64,000 bases of DNA from positions 11,525-75,524 of the forward strand of contig JAUYJB010000177.1 of NCBI GenBank assembly GCA_030688605.1, written 5' to 3'. Position numbers and translations under genes: made by a program. Below the pieces are notes generated by a model, which saw nothing but the letters and a program-made list of their open reading frames with translations, did no database searches and was not told the origin of the DNA. Shown here piece after piece: positions 5,509-62,613 of the stretch. The DNA is from Hyphomicrobiales bacterium (lineage in GTDB: Bacteria; Pseudomonadota; Alphaproteobacteria; Rhizobiales; NORP267). The first letter of the stretch is position 1, and each line of letters begins with the position of its first letter.

Positions 5509-5641
5509 GATCGCGGATCGCGGGTGGGGCCGCGGGCGCCGGATGAGCGGCGCGGCGGCGGCGACCATATCTGCGGTTGACCGGATATGCCAGAGGTGGT
5601 CGGATGGCGCGCGCTTTCTCGCATGGGTCCAGGTGTTTGTC

Positions 5642-6409
5642 ATGCCGCAATCCCGGCCGCGCGTCGGTCTGTTCGTCACCTGTCTCGTCGATCTGATGCG
5701 GCCGAGCGTCGGCTTCGCCGCGGTCAAGTTGCTGCAGGCGGCGGGCTGCACGGTCGAGGTGCCCCGGCTGCAGACCTGTTGCGGCCAGCCGGCCTACAAT
5801 TCCGGCGACCGCGGGGGCGCCGAGCGCCTGGCCCGGCAGACGATCGAGGCGTTTTCAGGCTTCGATTACGTGGTTGCGCCGTCGGGTTCCTGCGCCGGCA
5901 TGCTCAAGGTGCACTATCCGCGGCTTTTCGACGACGACCCGGCGATGCGCGACAAGGCCGCGGCGCTGGCCGAGAAGGTCCACGAGCTGGTCTCGTTTCT
6001 CGTCGACGTGCGCGGCCTGAAGAAGGTCGCGGCAAGCCACAACGGCACCGTCACCTATCACGATTCCTGCTCGGGGCTGCGCGAGCTCGGCATTTCCGAG
6101 CAGCCGCGGGCCCTCTTGCGCAAGGTCAAGGGGCTGAAGCTTGTCGAGCTTGCCGAGCGCGAAGCCTGTTGCGGCTTCGGCGGCACCTTCTGCGTCAAAT
6201 ATTCCGACATTTCCAACGCCATGGTCGCACGCAAGACCGCCGACATCGCGGCGACCGGCGCCGATCTGGTGCTTGCCGGCGATCTCGGCTGCCTGTTGAA
6301 CATCGCCGGCAAGCTGAAGCGCGAGGCAGGCGTGGCCGAGGCGCGGCACGTCGCCGAGGTGCTGGCCGGCATGACCGATACCCCGCCCATCGGCGCCGAG
6401 CGGCGCTGA
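5642..6409 (+). CDS. lutA: L-lactate utilisation protein LutA ((Fe-S)-binding CCG-domain oxidoreductase)
   Basis: Part of ORF 5369..6409, ATG at 5642 (MPQSRPRVGLFVTCLVD). Two CCG motifs (CCGQPAYNSG, CCGFGGTF). Confidence 0.9.
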   Translation: MPQSRPRVGLFVTCLVDLMRPSVGFAAVKLLQAAGCTVEVPRLQTCCGQPAYNSGDRGGAERLARQTIEAFSGFDYVVAPSGSCAGMLKVHYPRLFDDDPAMRDKAAALAEKVHELVSFLVDVRGLKKVAASHNGTVTYHDSCSGLRELGISEQPRALLRKVKGLKLVELAEREACCGFGGTFCVKYSDISNAMVARKTADIAATGADLVLAGDLGCLLNIAGKLKREAGVAEARHVAEVLAGMTDTPPIGAERR

Positions 6410-6420
6410 CGGATCAGCCC

Positions 6421-7845
6421 ATGCAGCCGCGCTCGGCCGCCTTCAAGGACAACGCCCGCGCCGCCCTCGCCGACGCTGAGCTTCAGCGAGCCTTGCGCGT
6501 CGGCGGCGGCGGCTTCGTCGAGCGCCGCCGCAAGGCGGTCGCCAAACTGCCCGAGTTCGACACGCTGCGCGACGAGGCGCGCGACATCAAGAACCACACG
6601 CTCGACTATCTCGACCTTTATTACGAGCGCTTCGAGGAGAAGGTGCGGGCCAATGGCGGCCAAGTGCATTTCGCGCCGACGGCCGAGGACGCGCGCGATA
6701 TCGTCCTCGACATCTGCCGCCAGGCGAAGGCGCGGACCGTCACCAAGGCCAAGTCAATGATCGCCGAGGAGATCGGCCTCAACGCGCACCTTGAGGCCAA
6801 TGGCATCGAGGCGGTGGAGACCGATCTCGGCGAATATATCATCCAGATCCGCGGCGAGAGCCCGAGCCACATCATCGCGCCGGCCATTCACGTCACCAAG
6901 GAACAGGTGGAAGCGGACTTCCGGCGGGCGCATGCGTGGCTGCCGGCCGACCGCGACCTCAAGGCGCCGGAAACCCTGGTGCGCGAGGCGCGAGCGGTGT
7001 TGCGCGAAAAATTTCTCGCCGCCGATGTCGGCATCACCGGCGCCAACATGCTGATCGCCGAAACCGGCAGCTCAGTCATCGTCACCAACGAGGGAAACGG
7101 CGATCTCACCCAGTCTCTGCCGCGCGTGCACATCGTCGTGGCGAGCCTGGAGAAGATGGTGCCGACGCTCGAGGACGCAACCGTCATCCTGCGGGTGCTG
7201 GCGCGGTCTGCGACCGGCCAGGAGCTGTCGGTCTATACCACTTTTTCCACCGGCGCGCGCCGCGCCGACGACCCGGACGGGCCGGCGGAATATCACGTCG
7301 TGGTGCTCGACAATGGCCGCACGCCGATGATCGGGACGAAGTTTCAGGACATGCTGCGCTGCATCCGCTGCGGCGCCTGCATGGACCATTGCCCGGTCTA
7401 TCAGGCGGTCGGCGGACACGCCTATGGCTGGGTCTATCCGGGACCCATGGGGGCGGTGCTGACGCCGCAACTTATCGGCATCGATCGGGCAGGCCACCTG
7501 CCCAATGCGTCGAGCTTCTGCGGGCGCTGCGAATCCGTCTGCCCGATGCGCATTCCGCTGCCGAACCTGATGCGCCATTGGCGCGAGCGCGAATTCGAGC
7601 GGCATCTCTCGCCGAAAAGCGCGCGCTGGGGCTTGGGCCTGTGGGAATTCGCCGCGACAAGGCCGCGGCTCTACCGCGCCGCGGTCAACATCGCCGTGCC
7701 TTTGCTGGCCATGCTCGCCGGCCGCCGGGGGCGCCTCAAGAGACTGCCGCTTGCCGGCGGCTGGACCCGGCACCGCGACCTGCCGGCGCCCGAGGGGAGC
7801 ACCTTTCAGCAATTGTGGCGCAAGAGAAAGGCGGGCCGGTCATGA
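6421..7845 (+). CDS. lutB: lactate utilisation protein LutB (4Fe-4S cluster protein)
   Basis: C-terminal part of ORF 5587..7845, ATG at 6421 (MQPRSAAFKDNARAAL). Motifs CIRCGACMDHCPVY and CGRCESVCPMRI. Confidence 0.9.
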   Translation: MQPRSAAFKDNARAALADAELQRALRVGGGGFVERRRKAVAKLPEFDTLRDEARDIKNHTLDYLDLYYERFEEKVRANGGQVHFAPTAEDARDIVLDICRQAKARTVTKAKSMIAEEIGLNAHLEANGIEAVETDLGEYIIQIRGESPSHIIAPAIHVTKEQVEADFRRAHAWLPADRDLKAPETLVREARAVLREKFLAADVGITGANMLIAETGSSVIVTNEGNGDLTQSLPRVHIVVASLEKMVPTLEDATVILRVLARSATGQELSVYTTFSTGARRADDPDGPAEYHVVVLDNGRTPMIGTKFQDMLRCIRCGACMDHCPVYQAVGGHAYGWVYPGPMGAVLTPQLIGIDRAGHLPNASSFCGRCESVCPMRIPLPNLMRHWREREFERHLSPKSARWGLGLWEFAATRPRLYRAAVNIAVPLLAMLAGRRGRLKRLPLAGGWTRHRDLPAPEGSTFQQLWRKRKAGRS

Positions 7846-8522
7846 ACGCGGAAAAGCGGCGCCAGGCGGTGCTCGACGGCTTGCGCCGTGCGCTCGGCGT
7901 GCGCGGCGATGAAAATGCGCGCCGGGCCATCGTCAAGGGGCGGATCGAGAACCATCCGCGCGGCACCATCCCGAAGCGCGCGCGGCTTGCCCCCTTCAAG
8001 CGGGTCGAGCTGTTCATCGCCATGGCGGAAGCCGCCGACGCCACAACCGCGCGGGTCGAGGACAAGAGCGGGGTGGTCGCCGCCATCGGCGAATTCCTGC
8101 TGAGCCGCGACCTGCCGGGCGATCTCGTGCATGGCGGCGATCCTTACATCGGAAGCCTTGACTGGCGCGCCCACAGGGAGATCAAAGCGCGCCGTGGCGC
8201 GCCTCGTCCGGAGGATGCGGTGTCGTTCGCGAAGGCGTTTGCCGGCGTCGCCGAGACCGGCACGCTGGTGATGATGTCCGGACCGGAGAACCCGACGACG
8301 CTCAACTTCCTGCCGTTCACCGAAATCGTGCTCCTCGAGGCCAAGGACATCGCCGGCGACTATGAGAGCGTGTGGGACAGACTGCGCGCCGAGCGTGGCG
8401 CCGGCAGCATGCCGCGCGCGCTTGTCTGGGTCACGGGCCCGTCGCGCTCGGCCGATATCGGCCAGGCGCTCCTGCTCGGCGCCCACGGCCCCGGCAATCT
8501 GCACATCATCATCGTCGGATAG
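7842..8522 (+). CDS. lutC: lactate utilisation protein LutC
   Basis: C-terminal part of ORF 6936..8522. ATG at 7842 overlaps the lutB stop (ATGA). LUD-domain-like sequence, third gene of lutABC. Confidence 0.85.
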   Translation: MNAEKRRQAVLDGLRRALGVRGDENARRAIVKGRIENHPRGTIPKRARLAPFKRVELFIAMAEAADATTARVEDKSGVVAAIGEFLLSRDLPGDLVHGGDPYIGSLDWRAHREIKARRGAPRPEDAVSFAKAFAGVAETGTLVMMSGPENPTTLNFLPFTEIVLLEAKDIAGDYESVWDRLRAERGAGSMPRALVWVTGPSRSADIGQALLLGAHGPGNLHIIIVG

Positions 8523-8526
8523 ACGG

Positions 8527-8692
8527 CTAGAGCGGTTCATGGTTATACGAAACCATATGACAGGGATGATTTTGCGCCGTGGCGGTGTTGCGGCTGTTGG
8601 CCGATGCACCGCATCGCCCGGCGAGCCGCGTCTGCTCGGATGAACCGATTTGGCCCATCGAATCGATTCCCTATAACCATGAACCGCTCTAG
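8527..8692. mobile_element. MITE-like element, family 1, copy 1 (166 bp, 21-bp perfect terminal inverted repeats, CTAG at both ends)
   Basis: Starts CTAGAGCGGTTCATGGTTATA and ends TATAACCATGAACCGCTCTAG. Near-identical to 21576..21687 in inverted orientation, apart from an extra internal 54 bp (8579..8632). No plausible ORF of its own. Confidence 0.75.
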
Positions 8693-8901
8693 GCCGCCGG
8701 GCCGCCTTTCCGGGCAGCGGCGAACTCGGCTTCCAGATCCGCCAGCAGCCGCTTGAAATCGTCCGGCACCGGCATGCCGAAGGCGCGCATCTCGCCGAGC
8801 TTTTCGCGCAATTGCAGGTAAAGCTCGTGCTTGTCCTCCGGCTGGTTCTCCATCTGCTTCAGCAGAAGCGAAATTTCCGCTTCGATCTCCTCAAGGGCCA
8901 T
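8689..8901 (-). CDS. small hypothetical protein (70 aa)
   Basis: Part of ORF 8689..9000, ATG at 8901 (MALEEIEAEISLLLKQMENQPEDKHELYLQLREKLGEMRAFGMPVPDDF). Helical and charged. Its TAG stop lies inside the terminal CTAG of the MITE. Confidence 0.5.
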   Translation of the reverse strand: MALEEIEAEISLLLKQMENQPEDKHELYLQLREKLGEMRAFGMPVPDDFKRLLADLEAEFAAARKGGPAA

Positions 8902-9155
8902 ATGCGCGCTCCCTGGTGCCTCGTCCACTGATGCGGACAATAGGATGTACCGGCCGTGCAATCCAGGCCCGGCCGTGGCACGGCAATTGTTCCCGGCCAT
9001 GCATTTCGTTTCCGGAATGAAATTCGATGGCGATAGTCACCAGCTTGTCCACAACTCGTCCAGGCTGTCTTCAGGGGCGGTCCACATGCCTTCGGCTCGG
9101 GCGGCGCGCCATCTGCCGAGGCGAACCTGCCCGGCCCTGAAGCTGGAATGTTTGC

Positions 9156-18368: not shown

Positions 18369-18370
18369 TC

Positions 18371-19657
18371 ATGGGCTATGTGGAAACCGGCAAGCTTGCT
18401 CACCGCATGAAGCGCATCGGCCATCTCGATATCCCCGGCGGCGGTCAGGTGGTGGTCAGCAATGGCCACGCCTTCGTCGGCCACATGAAGCCGCCGCACG
18501 GCACCTCGATCATCGATGTTTCCGATCCCGCCAGGCCGCGCCTGACAGCCCAGATCGAGCCGGAAACCGCCTATTCGCACACCCACAAGGTGCGGGTTGC
18601 CGGCGACATCATGATCACCAATGTGGAGCAGGACCGCCGTCATTTCCTGCGCAAGGGAGAAAAGCTGCCGCAACTGCGACAAAAGCTCGCCGCCGAACTG
18701 GGCCGGCCGGCAAGCGACGAGGAGCTTGCCGGAGGGCTCGCCGTTAGTGCCTCCGAAATCGCCGATCTCGAGGCGGCCCGCGCCCGCGGCTACCGCGAGG
18801 GCGGATTTCGGATCTGGGACGTGAGCCGCCCGGCAGCGCCGAAACTGCTGCATACCGAGCGCACCTTCGGCTTCGGCGTGCACCGCTTCGACATGGACAC
18901 CGGCCATGCCTTCATCTCCACCGAGATGGAGGGGTACGTCGGCAACATCCTGGTCATCTACGATCTCGCCGACCCGGCGCGCCCGCGCGAGGTCTCGCGC
19001 TGGTGGATGCCGGGCCAGCACATCGCCGGCGGCGAGACGCCGACCTGGGAGGGCTACGGCATCCGCCTGCACCACGCCATGCGGGTCGGCGACGAGCTGT
19101 GGGCCTCGGTGTGGCACGCCGGCTTCCGGGTCGTCGATATCAAGGACATGACGGCGCCGAAAACGGTCGCCGCCCACACCTATCATCCCTGGGTGAAGGA
19201 ACCGACGCACACGGTGCTGCCGGCGCAAAAGCGGTGCGGCGGCCGGCGCATCGCCGCCGTCGCCGACGAGGAGCATGAACATGTACACGGCCAGCCGCAT
19301 GCCGGACTGTGGCTGTTCGACGTGACGGACCTCGAAAACATCGAGCCGTTGTCGACCTTTCATGTGAGCGAAATGGATTCGCCCTTCAGCCGCGCGCCGG
19401 GGCGGTTCGGCATGCATCAGTTCCAGGAGCATATCGAGGGCGACCTGTTGTTCTGCGCCTGGTTCGGCGGCGGTCTGCGGGTCGTCGACATTTCCGATCC
19501 CGTGTTGCCGACCGAGGTCGGTCACTACATTCCCGAGCCCGTCGGCGGCAATCCGAGCCCGCAGAGCAACGACGTCGATGTCGACGGGCGCGGGCTTGTC
19601 TATCTCATCGACCGCAACCGCGGCTTCGACATTCTGGAATTTCAGGACCGAAAGTGA
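18371..19657 (+). CDS. LVIVD-repeat beta-propeller protein, no signal peptide, function unknown
   Basis: C-terminal part of ORF 17576..19657. ATG at 18371, 2 nt after the tctA stop. Repeats of the LVIVD type: [60 protein letters not shown]. Confidence 0.75.
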
Positions 19658-19668
19658 GAGAGGAGACC

Positions 19669-20652
19669 ATGCAACACCGAAATCTGACCGCCAACGGCCC
19701 CACCGTCTCGGCCATCGGGCTCGGCTGCATGGGCATGACCCCACTTTATGGCAAGCCCGACCCGGAGGAGGCGGTGCGCACGGTCCATGAAGCGATCGAC
19801 GCCGGCGTGACGCTGCTCGACACCGCCGACATGTATGCCGGCGGCAAAAACGAGGAGCTGGTCGGCCGCGCCATCGCCGGCCGCCGCGACAAGATCGTGC
19901 TGGCGACCAAGTTCGGCAATATCCGCAATCCCGACGGCACCGCCTCGATCAACGGCAAGGCCGAATATGTGGCCGAGGCCTGCGAGGCCTCGCTGAAACG
20001 TCTTGGCGTCGAGACCATCGACCTTTTCTACGTGCACCGGATCGATCCGACCGTGCCGATCGAGGAGACGGTCGGCGCCATGGCCAAGCTCGTCGAGGCC
20101 GGCAAGGTACGCTGGATCGGCCTTTCGGAAGCCGGCGTGGAGACGATCGCGCGCGCCCATGCGACCCATCCCCTGACCGCGCTGCAGACCGAATATTCGC
20201 TTGCCACGCGGGACGTGGAGCAGGCAATCCTGCCCAAATGCCGGGGGCTCGGCATCGGATTCGTCGCCTATTGCCCGCTCGGGCGCGGCCTTCTTACCGG
20301 AAAGTTCCGCTCCCTCGACGCACTGACGGAGAATGACCGCCGCCGCGCGATGCCGCGCTTCCAGGGCGACAATCTCGCCCACAATCTGGCACTCGTCGAC
20401 ACGATCACAGAGATTGCCGAGGCGCACGGCGTCTCGGCCTCGGTGGTTGCCCTGGCGTGGGTGCTCGCACAGGGTGACGACATCGTGCCCATACCAGGAT
20501 GCTCGCGCCGCGTAAGCTTGCGCGACACTCTTTCCGCCCTCGAACTGAAACTTTCCGCCGACGAGCTTGAGCGCCTGTCGTCGACCTTCGCGCCCGGCGC
20601 TGTCGTCGGTACCCGCTACCCGGAAAAACAGATGAGCCGCCTCGGCCTCTAA
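19669..20652 (+). CDS. aldo/keto reductase
   Basis: Part of ORF 19309..20652. ATG at 19669 after [25 protein letters not shown] and [10 protein letters not shown] motifs. Confidence 0.92.
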
Positions 20653-23441: not shown

Positions 23442-25424
23442 TTAGGTCGAGTATTTCAATCGGCTGCGCTGCCAGGTAAAGGCGATCCACACCGCCAGAG
23501 CGACGGTTAGCGCGGCGAACACCTCCAACTGGCTGCCCGGGGTCACGACTACCGCGGTGCCCAGCAGGACGCCGATCAGGCGCTGGAGATTGGATAGCGG
23601 CGCGAACAGGAATCCCTCGAACGACGCGGCCAGCGCCAGCACGCCGAGGCAGGACGCCAGCGCATTGGGCAGGACGTCGGTAGCCGTGCCCTGCATCAGC
23701 AGGGTCGGCGCATAGACGAAGCCAAAGGGGACGACAAAGGCCGCAATCCCGAAGCGCACCGCCGTGGCGGCGATGGCCACGGGATTTCCGCCGGCGATGG
23801 CGGCCGCCGCGTAGGCGGCGACGGCAACCGGCGGGGTGATGGCCGAAAGCACGGCAAAGTACAAGAGGAACATGTGCGCTTCGAGCAGCCCGAAGTCCAT
23901 TTTCAGCAGCGCCGGGGCGACAAGGATCGCGGCTAGGATATAAGCGCTGGGCGTCGGCATTCCCATGCCGAGAATGATGGTCACGCAGGCCGCCAGGATC
24001 AGCGTCAACAGGGCGCTGTCGCCGGCGATGAGCAATATCAGATTGGACAGCTTCATCGACAGTCCGGTCATGCTCAAGCCGCCGATCACCAGGCCCGCCG
24101 CGGCACAGGCGGCAACGACGGGAATCGTCCGGCGCGCCGTTTCCGCCAGCATCTCGATGCTCTTGACCAGCCCTTCCATTACCAGTCTGGCCAGCTCCCT
24201 GACATCCCCGGTTCTCACCAGCACCTTGATACTCTTGACCAGCCCGCGGCGCGTGCGCTCCGTGAACAGGGCGACGACAAAGACCGCTCCGGTCCCGTAT
24301 CCGGCGACGAATGAGGGCCCATAGCCCATCCACAGGGTGACCAGGATGATGGCGAGCGGGATGATGAATATCCATCCCAGCCGCATGGCTTCGCCCAGGG
24401 ATTCGAACGGCACCTCTCCGGCGCCGAGATTTCCCCGGCGCGCCAGGGCGTGCACCTGGGTGTAAACCCCGAGATAGTAAAGCAGAGCCGGGATGATCGC
24501 GGCGATGACGATCTCGCGATATTCGATGCCGGTGAACTCGGCCATGATGAAGGCGGCGGAGCCCATGACCGGGGGCATCAGGCTACCGCCGGTCGAAGCC
24601 GTCACTTCGATCGCCGCCGCGCGTTTGGCCGAGATGCCGATCCGCTTCATCATCGGGATGGTCATGCTGCCCGTGGTCACGACGTCGGAGGTCGGGCTGC
24701 CGGAAAACATGCCGTAAAGGCCGGAGGAGACCACCGCGACCTTGGCCGGCCCGCCGGGGCTGCGGCCGGTCGCGGCCGAGGCCAGGGCGAGAAAGAAATC
24801 TCCGCCGCCGACGGCGTTCAGCACCGTTCCGAACAGAACGAACAGATAGGCATAGGTCAGCGCCACCCGCACCGGCACGCCGAAGATGCCGTCGGTGGTG
24901 TAAAACATCATGTCGAGGGCGTGCTGTATGGTGATGCGGCCATGGCCGAGCACGCCCGGCAGCAGGTCTCCAAACAGGTTGTAGAGGACGAACAGGCCGA
25001 CGATCGCGGTGAGGCCGAGGCCGACGGTGCGCCGCGTCGCTTCGAACGTCAAAACGACGAGAAGGATACCGAACACCTGCTGCCACAGCGTCAACGGATC
25101 GAACAGGGAGATCCGGATCATGATCGTGTCGGCTGTGAAGGAAAAGTAAAGGCCGCAGGCAAAGCCGAGGCCGGAAAGAACGAGGTCTATGGGTCCGGGA
25201 GGGCCGGCATCGGCCCGCGCGGTCGGCGCCACCAGCAGAAACACCAGGCCGAGCACGACGGAGAGCAGGATGATCGTGGCGACATACATGTCGACCAGAA
25301 CGATCAGATTGACCCAGATCACCGCCAGCGACAGGCCGGCGCCGATGATCTTGACGAGCCAGCCATAGAACCCGTCAAGGGAGCGTATGGTTCCTGTATC
25401 GAACAGGAGATGGATGATCGACAT
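23442..25424 (-). CDS. TRAP transporter fused 4TM/12TM permease (TAXI type)
   Basis: Part of ORF 23442..25484, ATG at 25424. About 660 aa, polytopic. SSGLYGMFSGSPTSDVVTTGSMTIPMMKR motif. Adjacent to the TAXI binding protein. Confidence 0.9.
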   Translation of the reverse strand: MSIIHLLFDTGTIRSLDGFYGWLVKIIGAGLSLAVIWVNLIVLVDMYVATIILLSVVLGLVFLLVAPTARADAGPPGPIDLVLSGLGFACGLYFSFTADTIMIRISLFDPLTLWQQVFGILLVVLTFEATRRTVGLGLTAIVGLFVLYNLFGDLLPGVLGHGRITIQHALDMMFYTTDGIFGVPVRVALTYAYLFVLFGTVLNAVGGGDFFLALASAATGRSPGGPAKVAVVSSGLYGMFSGSPTSDVVTTGSMTIPMMKRIGISAKRAAAIEVTASTGGSLMPPVMGSAAFIMAEFTGIEYREIVIAAIIPALLYYLGVYTQVHALARRGNLGAGEVPFESLGEAMRLGWIFIIPLAIILVTLWMGYGPSFVAGYGTGAVFVVALFTERTRRGLVKSIKVLVRTGDVRELARLVMEGLVKSIEMLAETARRTIPVVAACAAAGLVIGGLSMTGLSMKLSNLILLIAGDSALLTLILAACVTIILGMGMPTPSAYILAAILVAPALLKMDFGLLEAHMFLLYFAVLSAITPPVAVAAYAAAAIAGGNPVAIAATAVRFGIAAFVVPFGFVYAPTLLMQGTATDVLPNALASCLGVLALAASFEGFLFAPLSNLQRLIGVLLGTAVVVTPGSQLEVFAALTVALAVWIAFTWQRSRLKYST

Positions 25425-25518
25425 GGGCCTGGCCGTTGCGTGCCGCCATGCGGAATAAGGTGCCGCGGGCGGGTCCGGACGCACGGTCCGGACCCGCCCG
25501 CAATGGCAGCGTCAAAGG

Positions 25519-26508
25519 CTAGTTCGTCTTCAGCAGGCCCGCCTCCTTGAGGTAGCGGACGGCGCCCGGATGATAGGGCACCACGGTCATCGAGGCCATC
25601 AGCTCCTTGTTCAGGGCCTTCATCGACCCATGCACGGCCTGGATCTTGTCGATATTCTCGTAGAGCGCCTTGCTCAGAGTGTATGCATCGTCATCGCTCA
25701 TATTCTCGTTGACGACGAGACCGGCGCTCAGTGTGATCGTCTCGACCGGCTCCTTCTGATTCTTGTAGGAGTCCGCGGGGATGGTGAACGGCTCGGTGCT
25801 CATCTTGGCGTTGACGGCGTCGGCGATGTCCTTCGGCACGCTGAGCATGACGACGTCGAGGCTCTCGTCGATCTTGCGCACCGAGCTGTGGCCGACGAAC
25901 AGCGAATTGTCGACCATGTCGATGCGCCGGTTGAGCAGCAGATCGGACTGTTCGCCCGAGGCCGCATAGACGATCTTGCCGCCCCAGGATTCGAGGTCCT
26001 GCTCGGTGATGCCGGCCGCCTCCAACATGGCAACGGAGACGTCGCCGGCGATATTGCCGCGCTTGTTGATGGCGATGCGCGCCGGCGCCTTCTTGGCCTT
26101 GATGTCGGCCAGCGACTTCAGGCCATATTTATCGGCGAAGTCCTTCGTAACGATGAGGTGCATGGGCGCCCAGGTGTAAAGGTAGGCGATCGCCCGCATG
26201 CTCTTCACCGGCGCCTTGAACGGCTCGACGCCGTCGAGCGCCATCTTCAGCTCCTGGGCGTGGGCGAGGCCCATCTGCGCTTCGCCACGGTCGACGATGA
26301 CGATGTTGGCGATGCCGCCGCCCGACGTCTGATAGGTCACGACGGAGCCCGGATAGGCGGCGCGAACGGCACCGTCGACGCCAGCACCGAGCAGCGACCA
26401 CAGGCCGCCCGGACTGGCGCCGGACAGGGTCAGGTTGTAGGTCTGCGCATACGCCGGGGCGGCGGCCGCCAGGACGAATGCCAGCAATGTGGCAATGATG
26501 CGTGTCAT
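25519..26508 (-). CDS. TAXI-family TRAP transporter solute-binding protein
   Basis: ORF 25519..26508. RBS AGGGAGGAAAG. Signal peptide MTRIIATLLAFVLAAAAPAYAQ. C-terminal HPGAVRYLKEAGL is typical of TAXI proteins. Confidence 0.9.
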   Translation of the reverse strand: MTRIIATLLAFVLAAAAPAYAQTYNLTLSGASPGGLWSLLGAGVDGAVRAAYPGSVVTYQTSGGGIANIVIVDRGEAQMGLAHAQELKMALDGVEPFKAPVKSMRAIAYLYTWAPMHLIVTKDFADKYGLKSLADIKAKKAPARIAINKRGNIAGDVSVAMLEAAGITEQDLESWGGKIVYAASGEQSDLLLNRRIDMVDNSLFVGHSSVRKIDESLDVVMLSVPKDIADAVNAKMSTEPFTIPADSYKNQKEPVETITLSAGLVVNENMSDDDAYTLSKALYENIDKIQAVHGSMKALNKELMASMTVVPYHPGAVRYLKEAGLLKTN

Positions 26509-26586
26509 GCTTTCCTCCCTTTAGGAAATGCGCTCGAGAACGGGGTTTCTTATCTCTCAAGCCCGATCGATCACTTAAACAGCATT

Positions 26587-26710: not shown

Positions 26711-26787
26711 TGGTACAGCTGGCTGGATTCGAACCAGCGACCTCCTGATCCACAGTCAGGCGCTCTAACCAACTGAGCTACAGCTGC
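26711..26787 (-). tRNA. tRNA-His (anticodon GTG), encoded CCA, no encoded G-1
   Basis: The reverse complement folds by hand into a cloverleaf: GCAGCTG-TA-GCTC-AGTTGGTTA-GAGC-G-CCTGA-CTGTGGA-TCAGG-AGGTC-GCTGG-TTCGAAT-CCAGC-CAGCTGT-A-CCA. Position -1 is T, the first pair is G1:U72, and the discriminator is A73. Confidence 0.95.
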
Positions 26788-48249: not shown

Positions 48250-48287
48250 CGCGGCCACAGCAAAACGCCGGCGGCCCGCCCGTCGTC

Positions 48288-48480
48288 ATCACCGGGCTTC
48301 GACCCGGTGATCCATGCGGCCGGGCCGCGAATTCACAAGGTCCCGAAGGGATTACGGTGATAGTGCACTCAATTATCTATCGTCACCGCGTGCATTCGGT
48401 TAATTGAGTGCACTGTCACCGTAATTATGTCACCGTAATTACGAATCTTACGGGCTATTTAATCAAACGATTGATTAAAT
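48288..48480. repeat. dense inverted/direct repeat block built on TCACCG / CGGTGA
   Basis: Components: a 9-bp stem ATCACCGGG/CCCGGTGAT (48288..48311); 25-bp inverted repeats ATTACGGTGATAGTGCACTCAATTA (48351..48375) and TAATTGAGTGCACTGTCACCGTAAT (48401..48425) with one mismatch; a tandem TGTCACCGTAATTA x2 (48414..48441); and a palindrome ATTTAATCAA-ACGA-TTGATTAAAT (48457..48480). Confidence 0.85.
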
Positions 48481-48556
48481 CAGAATGGCCGGAACAGGGT
48501 TCAGAACAGCCAGAACCGGTATGGTGGAATCGCCCAACCCATGGAATAAACCCACT

Positions 48557-49620: not shown

Positions 49621-50391
49621 TCAACCCCCCGCCTTCTTCCCCGGCCGCAGCAGGTGGCGGTGGGCGGGGTCGTAGAGCGCCGAATCGCGGAAATCGTGCG
49701 CGGCCAGCACCGGACCGACGAGGATCAGCGCGGTGCGGGTGATCTTCGCCGCCCGCACCTTTTCCGCGATGTCGGCAAGCGTGCCGCGCAGGATTTTCTC
49801 GTCGGGCCAGCTCGCCCGATAGACGACGGCCACCGGGCAGTCCTCGCCGTAATGCGGCGTCAGCGCCTCGCGAACATGACGCAGATTACGCACCGAAAGG
49901 TGGATCGCCAGCGTCGCGCCGGAGCGGCCCAGCAGCTCCAGGCTCTCCCGCGCCGGCATCTCGGAGGCCTTCATCGCGGTGCGGGTGAGGATCAGCGTCT
50001 GGGCGATGCCGGGAAGCGTCAGCTCGGTCTTCAGCGCGGCGGCGGCGGCGGCATAGGCCGGCACACCCGGGGTCACGTCGAAGGGGATGGAAAGCGCCTT
50101 GAGCCGGCGCATCTGCTCGCCGATGGCGCCGTAAAGCGACGGGTCGCCGGAATGCACCCGCGCCACATCCTCGGCCCTCGCGTGCGCCCGCTCCATCTCG
50201 GCGATAATCTCGTCGAGCGTCATCGAGGCCGTGTCGCGTATGAGCGCGCCTTCCGGCGCCGCGGCGACCACCGCCTTCGGCACCAGGGAGCCCGCATAAA
50301 GGCACACCGGGCAGCGCTTAATCAGGTCGAGCCCGCGCACGGTGATGAGGTCGGCCGCCCCCGGCCCGGCGCCGATGAAATGCACGCTCAC
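49621..50391 (-). CDS. cobM: precorrin-4 / cobalt-precorrin-4 C11-methyltransferase
   Basis: ORF 49621..50391. GTG start overlaps the upstream stop. [18 protein letters not shown] and [11 protein letters not shown] motifs. Confidence 0.92.
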
Positions 50392-52292
50392 GCCGCGCCC
50401 TCCCGCTTGGCGGCGTAGCCGCGCGGCGCGTAGACCCGCGTCGCCCCGTCGCCGCGGGCAAAACCGCGCGTGGTCGAAGAGCCGACGATGACGAGGGTCG
50501 TCATGTCGACCGCTTCGGCGTCGAACGCGTCGAGGGTCGTGACCGTCACATGCTCCTTTTCCCTGCCGAGATGGGCGGCGACGACGACCGGGGTTTGCGG
50601 CGAACGGTGTTGCCGCAAGATCGCCATGGCCCGGTCGAGCGGGTCGCGCCTGCGCTTGGAGCGCGGATTGTAGAAGCAGACCGCGAAATCGGCCTTCGCG
50701 GCGGCGCGCACGCGGCTTTCGATGACGCCCCAGGGGGTGAGCAGGTCGGAAAGCGAGATCAGACAGAAATCGTGGCCGAGCGGCGCGCCGGCCCGCGCCG
50801 CGGCCGCCTGGAAGGCGGAAATTCCCGGCGCGACGATGATCTCGGCGCGGCGCGCGGCATCGCCGATGCCGCTCTCGGTCATGGGATCGAGCAGCTCGTA
50901 AACCAGCGCCGCCAAGGCGTAGATGCCGGGATCGCCGGAGGAGACCAGCGCCACGTCGCGGCCCTGCCCGGCAAGCTCCAGGGCATGGCGCGCCCGCGCT
51001 TCCTCCTCGCCCAGCGCGAAACGGTGCAGGCGAACGCCCCCGAAACGACCTTCAATCGGGTCGCTCCACCCCCTCACCCTACCCGTAGCTGGGTGAGGGG
51101 GTGATCCAACCTCGACCGATGAGACTCCGGTGAGCCCGGCGGCAAGGTCGAGATAGGCGCCGTAGCCGACCCAAACGTCCGCCGCGCGCAACAGATGCGC
51201 CGCCTCGGGGCTCAGCCATGAGGCCGCTCCGGGGCCGATGCCGACGATCGAAAGCCGGCCTCTGGCGCGCCCGATCTGCACCGGATCGAGCGCCCGTTCC
51301 GCCCGGGCGACGGCGCATGTGGCGCGCTTCGACTTGACCTTTTCGACGACGAGCGTCCCTTGCGGCCCGACGGCGGCGAGCGCTGCGGCCTCGGCGACGC
51401 CGGCGACGCCGACCTCGCGCAGGACGGCCTCGGAAGGGTTGACAAGGCGCGGGGTTTCGGCCTCGAGCGCCTGACCGGCGAAGAACCGCGCCGGCACGCC
51501 AAGATGGGCGGCAAGCGTGTGGATCGCCGGCTCGTCGGCCTTGATGTCGAGCGAGCCGACAAGCGCGACCGCCGCTGCGGCGAGATCGTTGCCGGCCAAG
51601 ACGGTCTCGACGAGAGAGATCAACTCCTCACCGTCGCAGCCGCGTTCGCAGCCGACCCCCAGCGCCAGCACCTTCGGGTGATAGACCAGGCGGTCCGGTC
51701 CCCCGGCCACGCGCCGTTCGGTCGCGATAAGCGTAATCGTCCCGTCGCCGGAAAGCGGCAGGCCGCTCTCGGCAAGCCACGGCGCATTGCCCTCGATCCG
51801 CGCGCTCTGGCCGGCAAGCAGCGCCGCCATGACCGGCTTCGCATCCTGCGGGTTGGCCAGGACCCAGCCCTCGGGCGGATCGTCGAGCGCCAGGCCGAAG
51901 CGCGCATCGCTCGCCGTGGTGATCGCCGGGGCAATGCCGAGCGCTGCGCCGATGCGGCCGGCAAGTTCGTTGGCCCCCCTGTGGCCACCGAGCAGCGGCA
52001 CGACCGCCTTGCCGTTCTCGGCAACCGCCACCACCGGCGGCTCGGCGCGCTTGTCCAAAAGCAGACGGGCAAGAGCGCGGATGAGGATGCCGGCGGCGCA
52101 CAGGCCGACGATCGGCGAACGATCGGCAAACAGGCCGGCAAGATGCGTCATGGTGTCGTCGAAGTGAGCGTCAACGCCGTCGACTCGGCCGCTTGCCCCA
52201 TGGATCTCGCCTTCCCCGAGCGCTTCGCGCAATCTGCGCGCGGTGGCCGCCCCGCCAGGGGAAAGCACAACAAAAACAGGCGCTTTCACCAT
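50388..52292 (-). CDS. cobJ: bifunctional CbiG (cobalt-precorrin-5A hydrolase)-like / precorrin-3B C17-methyltransferase (CobJ/CbiH) fusion
   Basis: Part of ORF 50388..52700. ATG at 52292 overlaps the cobI stop. The N-terminal approximately 330 aa are CbiG-like ([25 protein letters not shown] ... [10 protein letters not shown]). The C-terminal half is a TP-methylase (LSIVGIGPG ... [12 protein letters not shown] ... [11 protein letters not shown]). Confidence 0.9.
51052..51122. repeat. intragenic palindromic element inside the cobJ domain
   Basis: 13-bp perfect stem CACCCCCTCACCC (51067..51079) / GGGTGAGGGGGTG (51091..51103) with an 11-nt loop. Flanked by imperfect outer arms TCAATCGGGTCG / CGACCGATGA. 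Translated in frame as [25 protein letters not shown]. Confidence 0.6.
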
Positions 52293-52993
52293 GACGGGCT
52301 CCCGGAATAGATCAGGATCATCGAAAAATAAGGCCGTGCGCCTTCGGGAACCTCGCTCAACGGATAGATGCGTTCTTCGGCCAGCGTCGCGCTCTCGACG
52401 ACGGACGCCTTTTCGTCGAGCCCGAGGACGCGCAACAGCGCCCGCAGCCGGTCGAAATGCCGGCCGACCTTGATGATGGCAACGGATTTTGCCCGCCCCA
52501 GCTCCGCCCGCAACTGCTCGTCGTCGAGGGTCCCCGGCAGCACCTTGATCACGTCGTCGCGGGCGGCGAGCGGCTGACGCAGGCGGGCGGCCGCCGCGGT
52601 GAGCGATGTCACGCCGGGGATAACCTCGATTCTGTGCCGCCGCGCCAGCCTGGCGAAGACGTAAATGAAACTGCCATAGAAGAACGGGTCGCCGGCGCAC
52701 AGAAAGACCACGTCGTCGCCCTTGTCGAGCCGCGCGGAAATGGCGGAAATCGCCGCTTCATAGGCGTCCAGCGCCGCGCCCTCGCTGCCGCGCTTGAAGA
52801 TCGGCACCGGCAGCTCCTCGGCGCCTTGGGGGATGTACGGGGCGGCGATCTTGCGCGCCAGGGCGGCGCCTTCCTTGTCGATGGGAAAGGCGATCAGATT
52901 CGCCTCGGAAATCAGCCGCGCCCCCTTGACGGTCAGAAGCTCCGGGTCGCCCGGCCCGACCCCCACGCCGTAAAGAACTCCCTTCTCGATCAT
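52286..52993 (-). CDS. cobI: precorrin-2 / cobalt-factor-II C20-methyltransferase
   Basis: ORF 52286..52993. LYGVGVGPGDPELLTVKG and CAGDPFFYGS motifs. Confidence 0.92.
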   Translation of the reverse strand: MIEKGVLYGVGVGPGDPELLTVKGARLISEANLIAFPIDKEGAALARKIAAPYIPQGAEELPVPIFKRGSEGAALDAYEAAISAISARLDKGDDVVFLCAGDPFFYGSFIYVFARLARRHRIEVIPGVTSLTAAAARLRQPLAARDDVIKVLPGTLDDEQLRAELGRAKSVAIIKVGRHFDRLRALLRVLGLDEKASVVESATLAEERIYPLSEVPEGARPYFSMILIYSGSPSW

Positions 52994-52997
52994 AGGC

Positions 52998-54203
52998 TTA
53001 ACCCTTCACCGCGCGCCATTGCATGACGCTCATGCGAGGCTTCAGGCCGCGCTTGCCGCCGACCGGGGCGAGAGGAGCGATGTCGATGCGGACGAGATCG
53101 CCGCCATATCGCCCCTGGCGGGCGATCAGCGCCGCTTCCCCTTCCAGCGTCACGGAATTGGCGACCAATCGCCCGCCTTGCGGCAAAGCCGACCAGCAGG
53201 CCTCGAACACCGCCTCGTCGGCCACCGCCCCGCCGTGGAATAGGACGTCCGGATGGGCCCTGCCTTGCAACGTCTCCGGCACCTTACCCGCCACGATTTC
53301 TAGATCCGGCACGCCGAGTGAACGCGCGTTCTCTCCGATCAGGGAAACGCGGTTCTGGTCGCGCTCGAAAGCGGTTGCGCGGGCGCCCCTTGCTGCGCGC
53401 ATCCATTCGACGGCGACCGAACCGCAGCCGGCGCCGACGTCCCAAAGCAGCGCGCCCGGCAGGGGCCCCAGGGCCGCCAGGGTCACCGCGCGCACCTCGC
53501 GCTTGGTGATCTGGCCGTCATGGCGGAAGGCTTCATCGGGCAATCCCGGCACCCGCGGCAATAGGACGGCTTCGGGCCCGGCGACACATTCGATCGCCAA
53601 CAGGTTGAATTCGGCGAAGGGTTGCCCGGAAACCTCTTCGGCGCTCAGCGCGACGCTGCGCTCGGCCGCCCCTCCCATATGCTCCAGCACATGCAGGCGG
53701 CTCTTCCCATAGCCCCGGCGCCGCAACAGATCGGCGACCTCGCACACCGTCCCGGCACCGCCGGTCAGCGCCAGGATGCGGGCGCCGGGCGCGATCAGAG
53801 GCGCGATCAGTGCCGCCGGCCGGCCGTGCAGCGACAGGCATTCGACCTCCTGCAGCGGCCAGCCGAGGCGCGCCGCCGCCAGGGCGAAGGCCGACGGCGC
53901 CGGCACGACGCGCATTTCCTCAAGCGGGATATGGCGCAAGAGCGTGCAGCCGACGCCGAAATGCATCGGATCGCCGCTCGCCAGCACCGCGACGGCGCGG
54001 CCGCGCCAGCCGGCGATGCGTGCAATCGTTTGCGACAGCGGCGAGGACCACACATGCAATTCCCGGCCCTCGGGGACAAGCCCCGCAAGCAGGCGTTCCG
54101 CGCCGACGACGATCTCCGCCGCATCGACAAGCGCCTTTGCCGCCGGGGGCAGGCCGGAAACGCCGTCGTCGCCGACGCCGATGACGCTGAGCCACGGTCT
54201 CAT
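52998..54203 (-). CDS. cobL: precorrin-6Y C5,15-methyltransferase (decarboxylating), CbiE/CbiT fusion type
   Basis: ORF 52998..54203. N-terminal TP-methylase (LSVIGVGDDG ... ASGDPMHFG). C-terminal SAM-methyltransferase motif (LWDVGAGCGSVAVE). Confidence 0.92.
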   Translation of the reverse strand: MRPWLSVIGVGDDGVSGLPPAAKALVDAAEIVVGAERLLAGLVPEGRELHVWSSPLSQTIARIAGWRGRAVAVLASGDPMHFGVGCTLLRHIPLEEMRVVPAPSAFALAAARLGWPLQEVECLSLHGRPAALIAPLIAPGARILALTGGAGTVCEVADLLRRRGYGKSRLHVLEHMGGAAERSVALSAEEVSGQPFAEFNLLAIECVAGPEAVLLPRVPGLPDEAFRHDGQITKREVRAVTLAALGPLPGALLWDVGAGCGSVAVEWMRAARGARATAFERDQNRVSLIGENARSLGVPDLEIVAGKVPETLQGRAHPDVLFHGGAVADEAVFEACWSALPQGGRLVANSVTLEGEAALIARQGRYGGDLVRIDIAPLAPVGGKRGLKPRMSVMQWRAVKG

Positions 54204-60378: not shown

Positions 60379-60475
60379 GGGAGGTTGGCGGCGGACGAGC
60401 CGCTCGCCAACCGGGTCAGGTCCGGAAGGAAGCAGCCCCAACGAGACCGGCACGGGTTGTCGTCCAGCCTCCCAC
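60379..60475 (+). ncRNA. ffs: signal recognition particle RNA (4.5S/SRP RNA, ffs)
   Basis: Contains the universally conserved domain IV sequence GGGUCAGGUCCGGAAGGAAGCAGCC. The 5' GGGAGGUUGG pairs with the 3' CCAGCCUCCC. It sits in the classic position immediately upstream of dnaX. Ends are approximate. Confidence 0.85.
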
Positions 60476-60511
60476 CGGGGCGCCGAAAAGGTCCGGGGCC
60501 GGGGAGGCCGA

Positions 60512-62320: not shown

Positions 62321-62352
62321 CGCATGATGATTTTAAGTCGACGCGCAACCAT

Positions 62353-62537
62353 CCCTCCTCCCTTGCGGGGGAGGACGAAAAATCAATGCGTTGGCGGCGC
62401 GTCAGCGGCGCCAAGCGCTGGATTTTTCAGGAGGGGGGGACATGCCGCCGATCCCCCTCCTGCAAAATTCAAGGGTTAGCCTCGCGAAGCTCGGCTAACA
62501 CCTTAATTTTGCTTTCTCCCCCGCAAGGGGGGAGAAG
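62353..62537. repeat. cluster of five GC-rich REP-like hairpins in the dnaX-ybaB spacer
   Basis: The five hairpins are: CCCTCCTCCC-TTGC-GGGGGAGG (62353..62374); a long imperfect hairpin GAAAAATC...GATTTTTC (62377..62428); CAGGAGGGGG/CCCCCTCCTG (62428..62462); GTTAGCC/GGCTAAC (62475..62499); and TTCTCCCCC-GCAA-GGGGGAGAA (62513..62537). Confidence 0.7.
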
Positions 62538-62613
62538 AATATTAGAGAGCGAGGGCGAGGGAAGAAACCGTCGATGACCCGATGGTATGAGCTGTGAAAG
62601 AAAGGCCTGAGCC

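Follow-up and report, generated by a model that had tools for sequence, protein, structure and literature searches.

The window, by which we mean the whole 64-kb stretch of DNA that was analysed, contains a compact cob operon on the minus strand. It is made up of cobL (52998–54203), cobI (52286–52993), a cbiG-cobJ fusion gene (50388–52292), and cobM (49621–50391). At its start, cbiG-cobJ overlaps the end of cobI; at its stop codon, it overlaps the GTG start of cobM. The fusion gene is an intact ORF encoding a protein of 634 amino acids, in which CbiG_N (residues 50–129) and CbiG_C (residues 209–329) precede a TP_methylase domain (residues 347–589). Despite the presence of the cob operon, no cobalamin riboswitch was detected by Rfam anywhere in the 64-kb window. 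The only two Rfam matches were a bacterial small SRP RNA directly upstream of dnaX (60379–60476, 57.7 bits) and a tRNA gene on the minus strand (26714–26787, 77 bits).

The product of cbiG-cobJ is a member of the CobJ/CbiH family. It scores 265.1 bits against TIGR01466 (cobJ_cbiH), which passes the curated cut-off of 246.35, and it also has matches to PF00590, CbiG_N, and CbiG_C, along with the class III tetrapyrrole-methylase fold. The best CobJ homologues are 61–70 per cent identical, and those with names come from Hyphomicrobiales/Rhizobiales (Aurantimonas, Roseibium, Salaquimonas, and Aestuariivirga). The TIGR01466 match is broken into two stretches, however, and the main one begins only past an in-frame segment of 87 bp.

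This segment lies at 51042–51128 on the minus strand and comprises 29 codons (codons 389–417 of the 634-residue protein). We aligned the CobJ domain with its 120 best database homologues, all within the 61–70 per cent identity range. Exactly 29 residues, a gap of twenty-nine columns, are missing from 120 of 120, and none of these homologues carries an equally long segment at this position. The twenty-nine residues are also absent from PDB entries 2zvb and 3nut, which are both of the solved CobJ/CbiH structures. The HMMER alignments split at the insert, going from query residue 51 to 81 while the 2zvb chain advances from 42 to 45, and from query residue 51 to 85 while the 3nut chain advances from 49 to 53. 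An earlier note on this DNA had proposed an alignment with CobJ/CbiH orthologues and had estimated that about 30 amino acids (90 bp) were extra; the excess is real, and the homologues together with 2zvb and 3nut set it at exactly 29 amino acids, or 87 bp.

The same picture is seen at the codon level. Two relatives (L024 and L025) have four codons between a conserved L and the RxHRF motif, compared to 4 + 29 in the window. Their DNA represents a clean empty site: 87 bp were gained, and no ancestral codon was removed. Since CGG is present at both junctions, the boundaries of the insert can be moved by up to 3 nt. We are highly confident that the 87-bp stretch is an insertion relative to the CobJ family. 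The comparisons show a clean insertion into the cobJ half of cbiG-cobJ and place the event in the lineage of this bacterium.

Most of the insert is taken up by an imperfect palindrome of 71 bp (51052–51122). At its core is a perfect 13-bp stem, with the left arm CACCCCCTCACCC at 51067–51079 and the right arm GGGTGAGGGGGTG at 51091–51103 (both given as plus-strand sequence), each the exact complement of the other. The 11-nt loop between them, TACCCGTAGCT, occupies 51080–51090. Together with the adjacent C of the stem, the loop reads CTAC-CC-GTAG, and its TAC/GTA could lengthen the stem. The perfect core is flanked by imperfect outer arms, TCAATCGGGTCG and CGACCGATGA, which pair with each other in the predicted fold. 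The stem, loop, outer arms, and extent of the 71-bp unit all agree with the earlier note, as does the translation that it quoted across the palindrome.

The predicted structure is unusually stable. A 96-nt RNA across the palindrome folds at −54.3 kcal/mol (z = −4.95), and none of 200 shuffles was as good. Folded as DNA, the 87-nt insert has z-scores of −4.9 and −4.6 for its two strands. About 68 nt of it form one hairpin, and the outermost ends of the insert stay unpaired. When folded alone, the two halves of the insert are no better than shuffles (z of −0.44 and −0.35). In a GC-corrected 90-nt folding scan of the window, the cobJ palindrome ranks third in strength (z = −5.1), behind two structures that are both located in spacers. 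Perfect stems of at least 13 bp with loops of 3–25 nt occur four times in the window, where dinucleotide shuffles lead one to expect 0.1. No terminator-like site or promoter signature was found in 50400–52300, no Rfam family matched the insert near its gathering score, and a tandem-repeat reading of the palindrome was negative.

Several other hairpins are present in the window. The strongest structure in the 90-nt scan (48351–48445, z = −7) is an AT-rich inverted repeat of 25 nt, ATTACGGTGATAGTGCACTCAATTA / TAATTGAGTGCACTGTCACCGTAAT, with 24 of 25 positions complementary and a 25-nt spacer. A GC-rich hairpin (48271–48328) lies before it, and after it comes a second direct TCACCGTAATTA motif, shortly upstream of an ORF that starts at 48485 (357 amino acids). 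This inverted repeat may represent an array of operators or a small unit of the MITE type. At 25465–25501, where two minus-strand ORFs (23442–25511 and 25519–26520) adjoin, there is a perfect GC-rich hairpin of 16 bp with a 5-nt loop (GCGGGCGGGTCCGGAC), which is probably a terminator or attenuator. Finally, lutA has a perfect 13-bp palindrome at 6271–6314, GCTTGCCGGCGAT / ATCGCCGGCAAGC, within the ordinary coding stretch AGDLGCLLNIAGK (encoding ...LAGDLGCLLNIAGK...), and there is no sign of an insertion. Because the lutA palindrome sits in ordinary coding sequence, the occurrence of a palindrome in coding DNA does not by itself prove that an insertion has taken place.

The composition of the insert sets it apart from the remainder of the gene. 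Its GC3 is 0.55 (16 of 29 codons) compared to 0.83 on average for the gene (binomial p = 4e-4), which is the lowest GC3 in the gene, and GC1, GC2, and GC3 are about equal within it. We also calculated a codon-adaptation (CAI-like) index built on eleven genes of the window. The insert has an index of 0.265, compared to 0.651 ± 0.113. This is the gene-wide minimum (rank 1 of 605 windows along the gene), and it falls exactly at codon 388, at the start of the insert. Of the six reading frames across the unit, five are interrupted by TGA or TAG, and the sole open frame is the one in use. The frame analysis, the homologue gap, and the codon-level empty sites all support the earlier note in its view that the extra segment coincides with the palindrome and preserves the reading frame. 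On these compositional grounds, the inserted DNA looks like foreign DNA of a non-coding type and unlike the coding DNA of this genome. That its inner stem is still perfect and its codon usage not yet ameliorated suggests a fairly recent arrival in evolutionary terms.

Mapping of the insert onto a CobJ/CbiH structure, as the earlier note had also proposed, was done with an AlphaFold2 model of the methylase domain (built on fifty-one sequences) and with 2zvb and 3nut. The model has a mean pLDDT of 91 and a pTM of 0.85, and it matches CobJ 3nut (TM 0.89) and 2zvb. The insert corresponds to model residues 53–81, with pLDDT values of 60–75, and is the only internal stretch of low confidence. It comes between helix 42–52 (helix B) and strand 84–89 (strand 3), all other secondary-structure elements are present, and part of it forms a beta-hairpin with strand 3. 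In the model, the insert is thereby shown to occupy a loop of the tetrapyrrole-methylase N-domain, between helix B and strand 3. In the known topology of class III methylases, loops that precede strands are on the other side of the fold from the GxGPG/GDPG active-site loops, so the insert should be a tolerated surface excursion. We infer that it is translated as 29 residues, rich in Gly, Ser, Pro, and Arg, that extend from the protein surface. With the predicted fold otherwise intact, the protein should tolerate it.

One alternative to an insertion event is that the segment is an ordinary lineage-specific loop that grew in place, with a palindrome that is either coincidental or selected as mRNA structure. 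The lutA palindrome, which is just as perfect over 13 bp and lies in ordinary coding DNA, is consistent with this explanation, as is the predicted beta-hairpin with strand 3. We nevertheless consider it very improbable, given that the twenty-nine codons are the minimum of the whole gene in both composition and codon usage, that the hairpin (z about −5) spans almost exactly the extra codons, and that 0 of 120 homologues have any extra residue at the site.

We looked for further copies of the insert, beginning with the window itself. A stem search allowing two mismatches, blastn-short, and nhmmer of a 106-bp region returned only self-matches within the 64 kb. There were no matches of at least 12 nt to the insert elsewhere in the window, and an all-against-all blastn of the strong window hairpins gave no sequence link to it. 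Two low-GC3 stretches (6754–9155 and 18369–20652) were considered as possible IS elements and set aside: the recognised one is a LutB-type metabolic ORF (5587–7845), and no other ORF was transposase-like by eye.

Exact-stem scans were run on much larger collections. Among 185,579 species genomes, which appear not to include the source genome or close relatives, there were seven loci, all of them unrelated hairpins sharing only the searched core; the cobJ palindrome of the window was not among them. The JGI metagenomes yielded 0 and then 7 loci, again all unrelated hairpins with different flanks, and the nine loci among IMG/VR viral contigs were likewise unrelated hairpins with only the searched core in common. 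This CACCCCCTCACCC/GGGTGAGGGGGTG core recurs independently in unrelated genomes. Inquilinus ginsengisoli (L001 7240–7295 and L002 7022–7080) has its own small repeat family built on it with different flanks, and so does contig L014 (1949–1977 and 3722–3750). A blastn search of PLSDB plasmids found nothing. The six-frame peptides of the insert had no match at E ≤ 10 among 5.8 billion proteins. For the real-frame peptide, phmmer against 1.84 billion representatives returned a single match, the tandem-repeat protein P0121 (APATGEVLGWND), which we judged to be a chance match to an unrelated repeat protein.

The earlier note had called the palindrome an element, which implies that it belongs to a family of repeated or mobile sequences. 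That claim did not find support, as no second copy was recovered from the window, from the collections of genomes, metagenomes, viruses, and plasmids, or from translated proteins. REP and MITE families are usually confined to one species or genus. Because neither the source genome nor any close relative appears to be in the searched collections, these negative results are weak for the host genome.

A sequence that is palindromic, present as a single copy, and seen only in this assembly could also be an assembly or sequencing artefact, such as a chimeric or hairpin read that entered the consensus. We regard this as extremely unlikely. The length of the insert is a multiple of three, it is placed in the one open frame of six, and its junctions are clean in the codon-level comparison. 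The insert is also not known to resemble PacBio or Illumina adapter sequence, which counts against an artefact as well.

The junctions were examined for a target-site duplication. No direct repeat of at least 6 nt was found at offsets of 60–100, and only the 3-nt CGG is shared by the two junctions. The main rival to a repeat origin is that the insert is an orphan, a one-off insertion and not a transposable repeat, supplied either as filler DNA during double-strand-break repair or by templated or snap-back synthesis. Quasipalindrome correction, in which each arm can serve as template for the other through intrastrand switching, would then have made the central stem perfect or maintained it so. 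The lack of a further copy in the searched collections or the window is consistent with such an origin, as are the absence of a target-site duplication beyond CGG and the combination of imperfect outer arms with a perfect centre. However, neither arm matches other sequence in the 64 kb, which rules out copying from DNA close by. Since the homologues lack both arms, the insert is not a fold-back duplication of local gene sequence either. In addition, clean junctions with all ancestral codons kept are unusual for end-joining. Overall, we consider a one-off insertion rather unlikely.

The insert was also compared to hairpins and palindromic elements of known types. The closest in position are three small C5/G5 hairpins in the dnaX-ybaB spacer (62340–62540): CCTCCTCCC-TTGC-GGGGGAGG, CAGGAGGGGG-15 nt-CCCCCTCCTG, and TTCTCCCCC-GCAA-GGGGGGAGAA. 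Over 19 nt in inverted orientation, the first is 95 per cent like the third, and the two make up a local mini-family whose sequence is unrelated to the cobJ insert. The earlier note had considered the cobJ palindrome to be of the same type as these hairpins. The resemblance is limited to GC-rich arms on C5/G5 runs, with the 7-mer CCCCCTC/GAGGGGG common to the insert and one spacer hairpin, and there is no alignable sequence. The spacer hairpins have stems of 7–10 bp, closed by short loops of the TTGC/GCAA type in two cases and by a loop of 15–17 nt in the remaining one, and none is like the cobJ insert.

A REP unit is a sequence of 20–40 bp that has its own stem-loop and an unpaired GTAG or CGTC tetranucleotide at one end. 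REPs and REPINs occur in many copies per genome, mostly in extragenic regions, and are associated with a RAYT (Y1, IS200-like) transposase. The cobJ insert resembles intragenic REPs and REPINs in being a short GC-rich palindrome wholly within an ORF and in frame, adding twenty-nine residues where REP dimers add 20–30. It folds as one long hairpin, as an inverted REP pair does, and target-site duplication is absent. The CTAC-CC-GTAG at its centre is where a tail-to-tail dimer would place the GTAG tags. The hairpin of about 68 nt also fits the REPIN architecture (two inverted repeats in one hairpin of roughly 60–130 nt), which is a correspondence of architecture alone.

In other respects the insert departs from REPs. 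Its GTAG/CTAC is inside the loop of a single long hairpin, whereas the tag of a REP is unpaired beside a stem-loop of 6–13 bp, and no CGTC was seen by eye. The 13-bp stem has a loop of 11 nt compared to the usual 2–5 nt, no other copies of the insert were found, and no RAYT transposase was noticed among those ORFs of the 64 kb that were looked at. We ruled out a tail-to-tail dimer of GTAG REPs (z of the halves about −0.4): with halves that form no stem-loops of their own, the insert does not consist of two classical REP units.

The Rickettsia palindromic elements (RPE-1 to RPE-10) offer a second comparison. Like them, the cobJ insert is an in-frame palindrome in a housekeeping or metabolic gene of an alphaproteobacterium, probably translated, at a predicted surface-exposed position that preserves the host fold. 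RPEs, by contrast, are multi-copy, about 100–150 bp long, and encode conserved peptides in the reduced genomes of obligate intracellular bacteria. Here there is one copy of 87 bp in a GC-rich, apparently free-living, Hyphomicrobiales-like genome. The position of the insert, in frame and compatible with the fold, is as in RPEs, and its peptides are without similarity in protein databases, an indirect indication that it belongs to no RPE family. The insert might be one copy of an undescribed, coding-compatible palindromic mobile family of a free-living, GC-rich, Hyphomicrobiales-like bacterium, RPE-like and outside obligate intracellular bacteria, that decorates several housekeeping proteins with the same peptide of about twenty-nine residues; we give this only a small chance of being correct. 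A still more remote variant is that ribosomes might bypass the hairpin instead of translating it, in the manner of the ‘byp’ elements known from yeast mitochondria. As the frame through the insert is open, such bypass is not required.

MITEs (ERIC, BOX, Correia/NEMIS, Nezha, and QMITE1) are similar in that they are small, non-autonomous, hairpin-forming inserts able to make in-frame fusions. A MITE is recognised, though, by its terminal inverted repeats, by a target-site duplication, and by a parent IS, and none of the three was found for the insert within the 64-kb window. The ends of the insert are unpaired, and there is only CGG at its junctions.

The earlier note had compared the palindrome with the in-frame insertions of Rickettsia palindromic elements. 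In-frame palindromic insertion is not, in essence, a speciality of Rickettsia, and cases far beyond this genus have been documented (Di Nocera, De Gregorio, and Rocco 2013, PMC3733652; 2024 MITE review, PMC10969869). Many species have REPs located wholly inside ORFs, and Erythrobacter litoralis, Sphingopyxis alaskensis, and R. conorii are alphaproteobacteria among them; more than half of the intragenic REP inserts are dimers or groups encoding 20–30 amino acids (PMC3733652). In-frame fusions by intragenic MITEs have been described as ‘not unusual’ (PMC10969869). The supplementary files of PMC3733652 include no matching consensus and no cobJ case. The cobJ insert is thus a further instance of an already known kind of event, and it fits no named family.

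Taken as a whole, the most likely reading, which we hold to be somewhat better than even, is that of a recent-looking, clean 87-bp insert, translated and tolerated, whose source is a hairpin repeat, REP/REPIN/MITE-like, in the host genome. Hairpin-forming DNA of non-coding composition entered the cobJ half of cbiG-cobJ without the loss of any codon. Under this reading, it would be read through as a surface loop of twenty-nine residues, leaving CobJ and the translationally coupled downstream cobM working. The insert would have persisted because its length is a multiple of three, because it landed in the only stop-free combination of frame and orientation among six, and because we infer the loop to be a permissive one, away from the SAM/tetrapyrrole site. 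The least secure step is the source of the DNA, which by analogy may be a repeat that followed the same route as intragenic REPs and RPEs. The missing target-site duplication fits single-strand insertion of the REP/IS200 type. Against a repeat origin, no further copy was found, the halves have no stem-loops of their own, and there are neither clear terminal inverted repeats nor a MITE-type duplication.

What the insert means depends on its copy number. As a single copy it would be a curiosity, although one that explains split CobJ profile matches during annotation and that could serve as a strain or lineage marker. If the unit proves to be multi-copy, it would be a clean, datable case of non-coding hairpin DNA giving rise to a protein loop in a free-living alphaproteobacterium. 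As the host enzyme has solved relatives, it would then offer a way to test how well a class III methyltransferase tolerates an insert of twenty-nine residues, and also whether a very stable intragenic mRNA hairpin alters expression across the cob operon.
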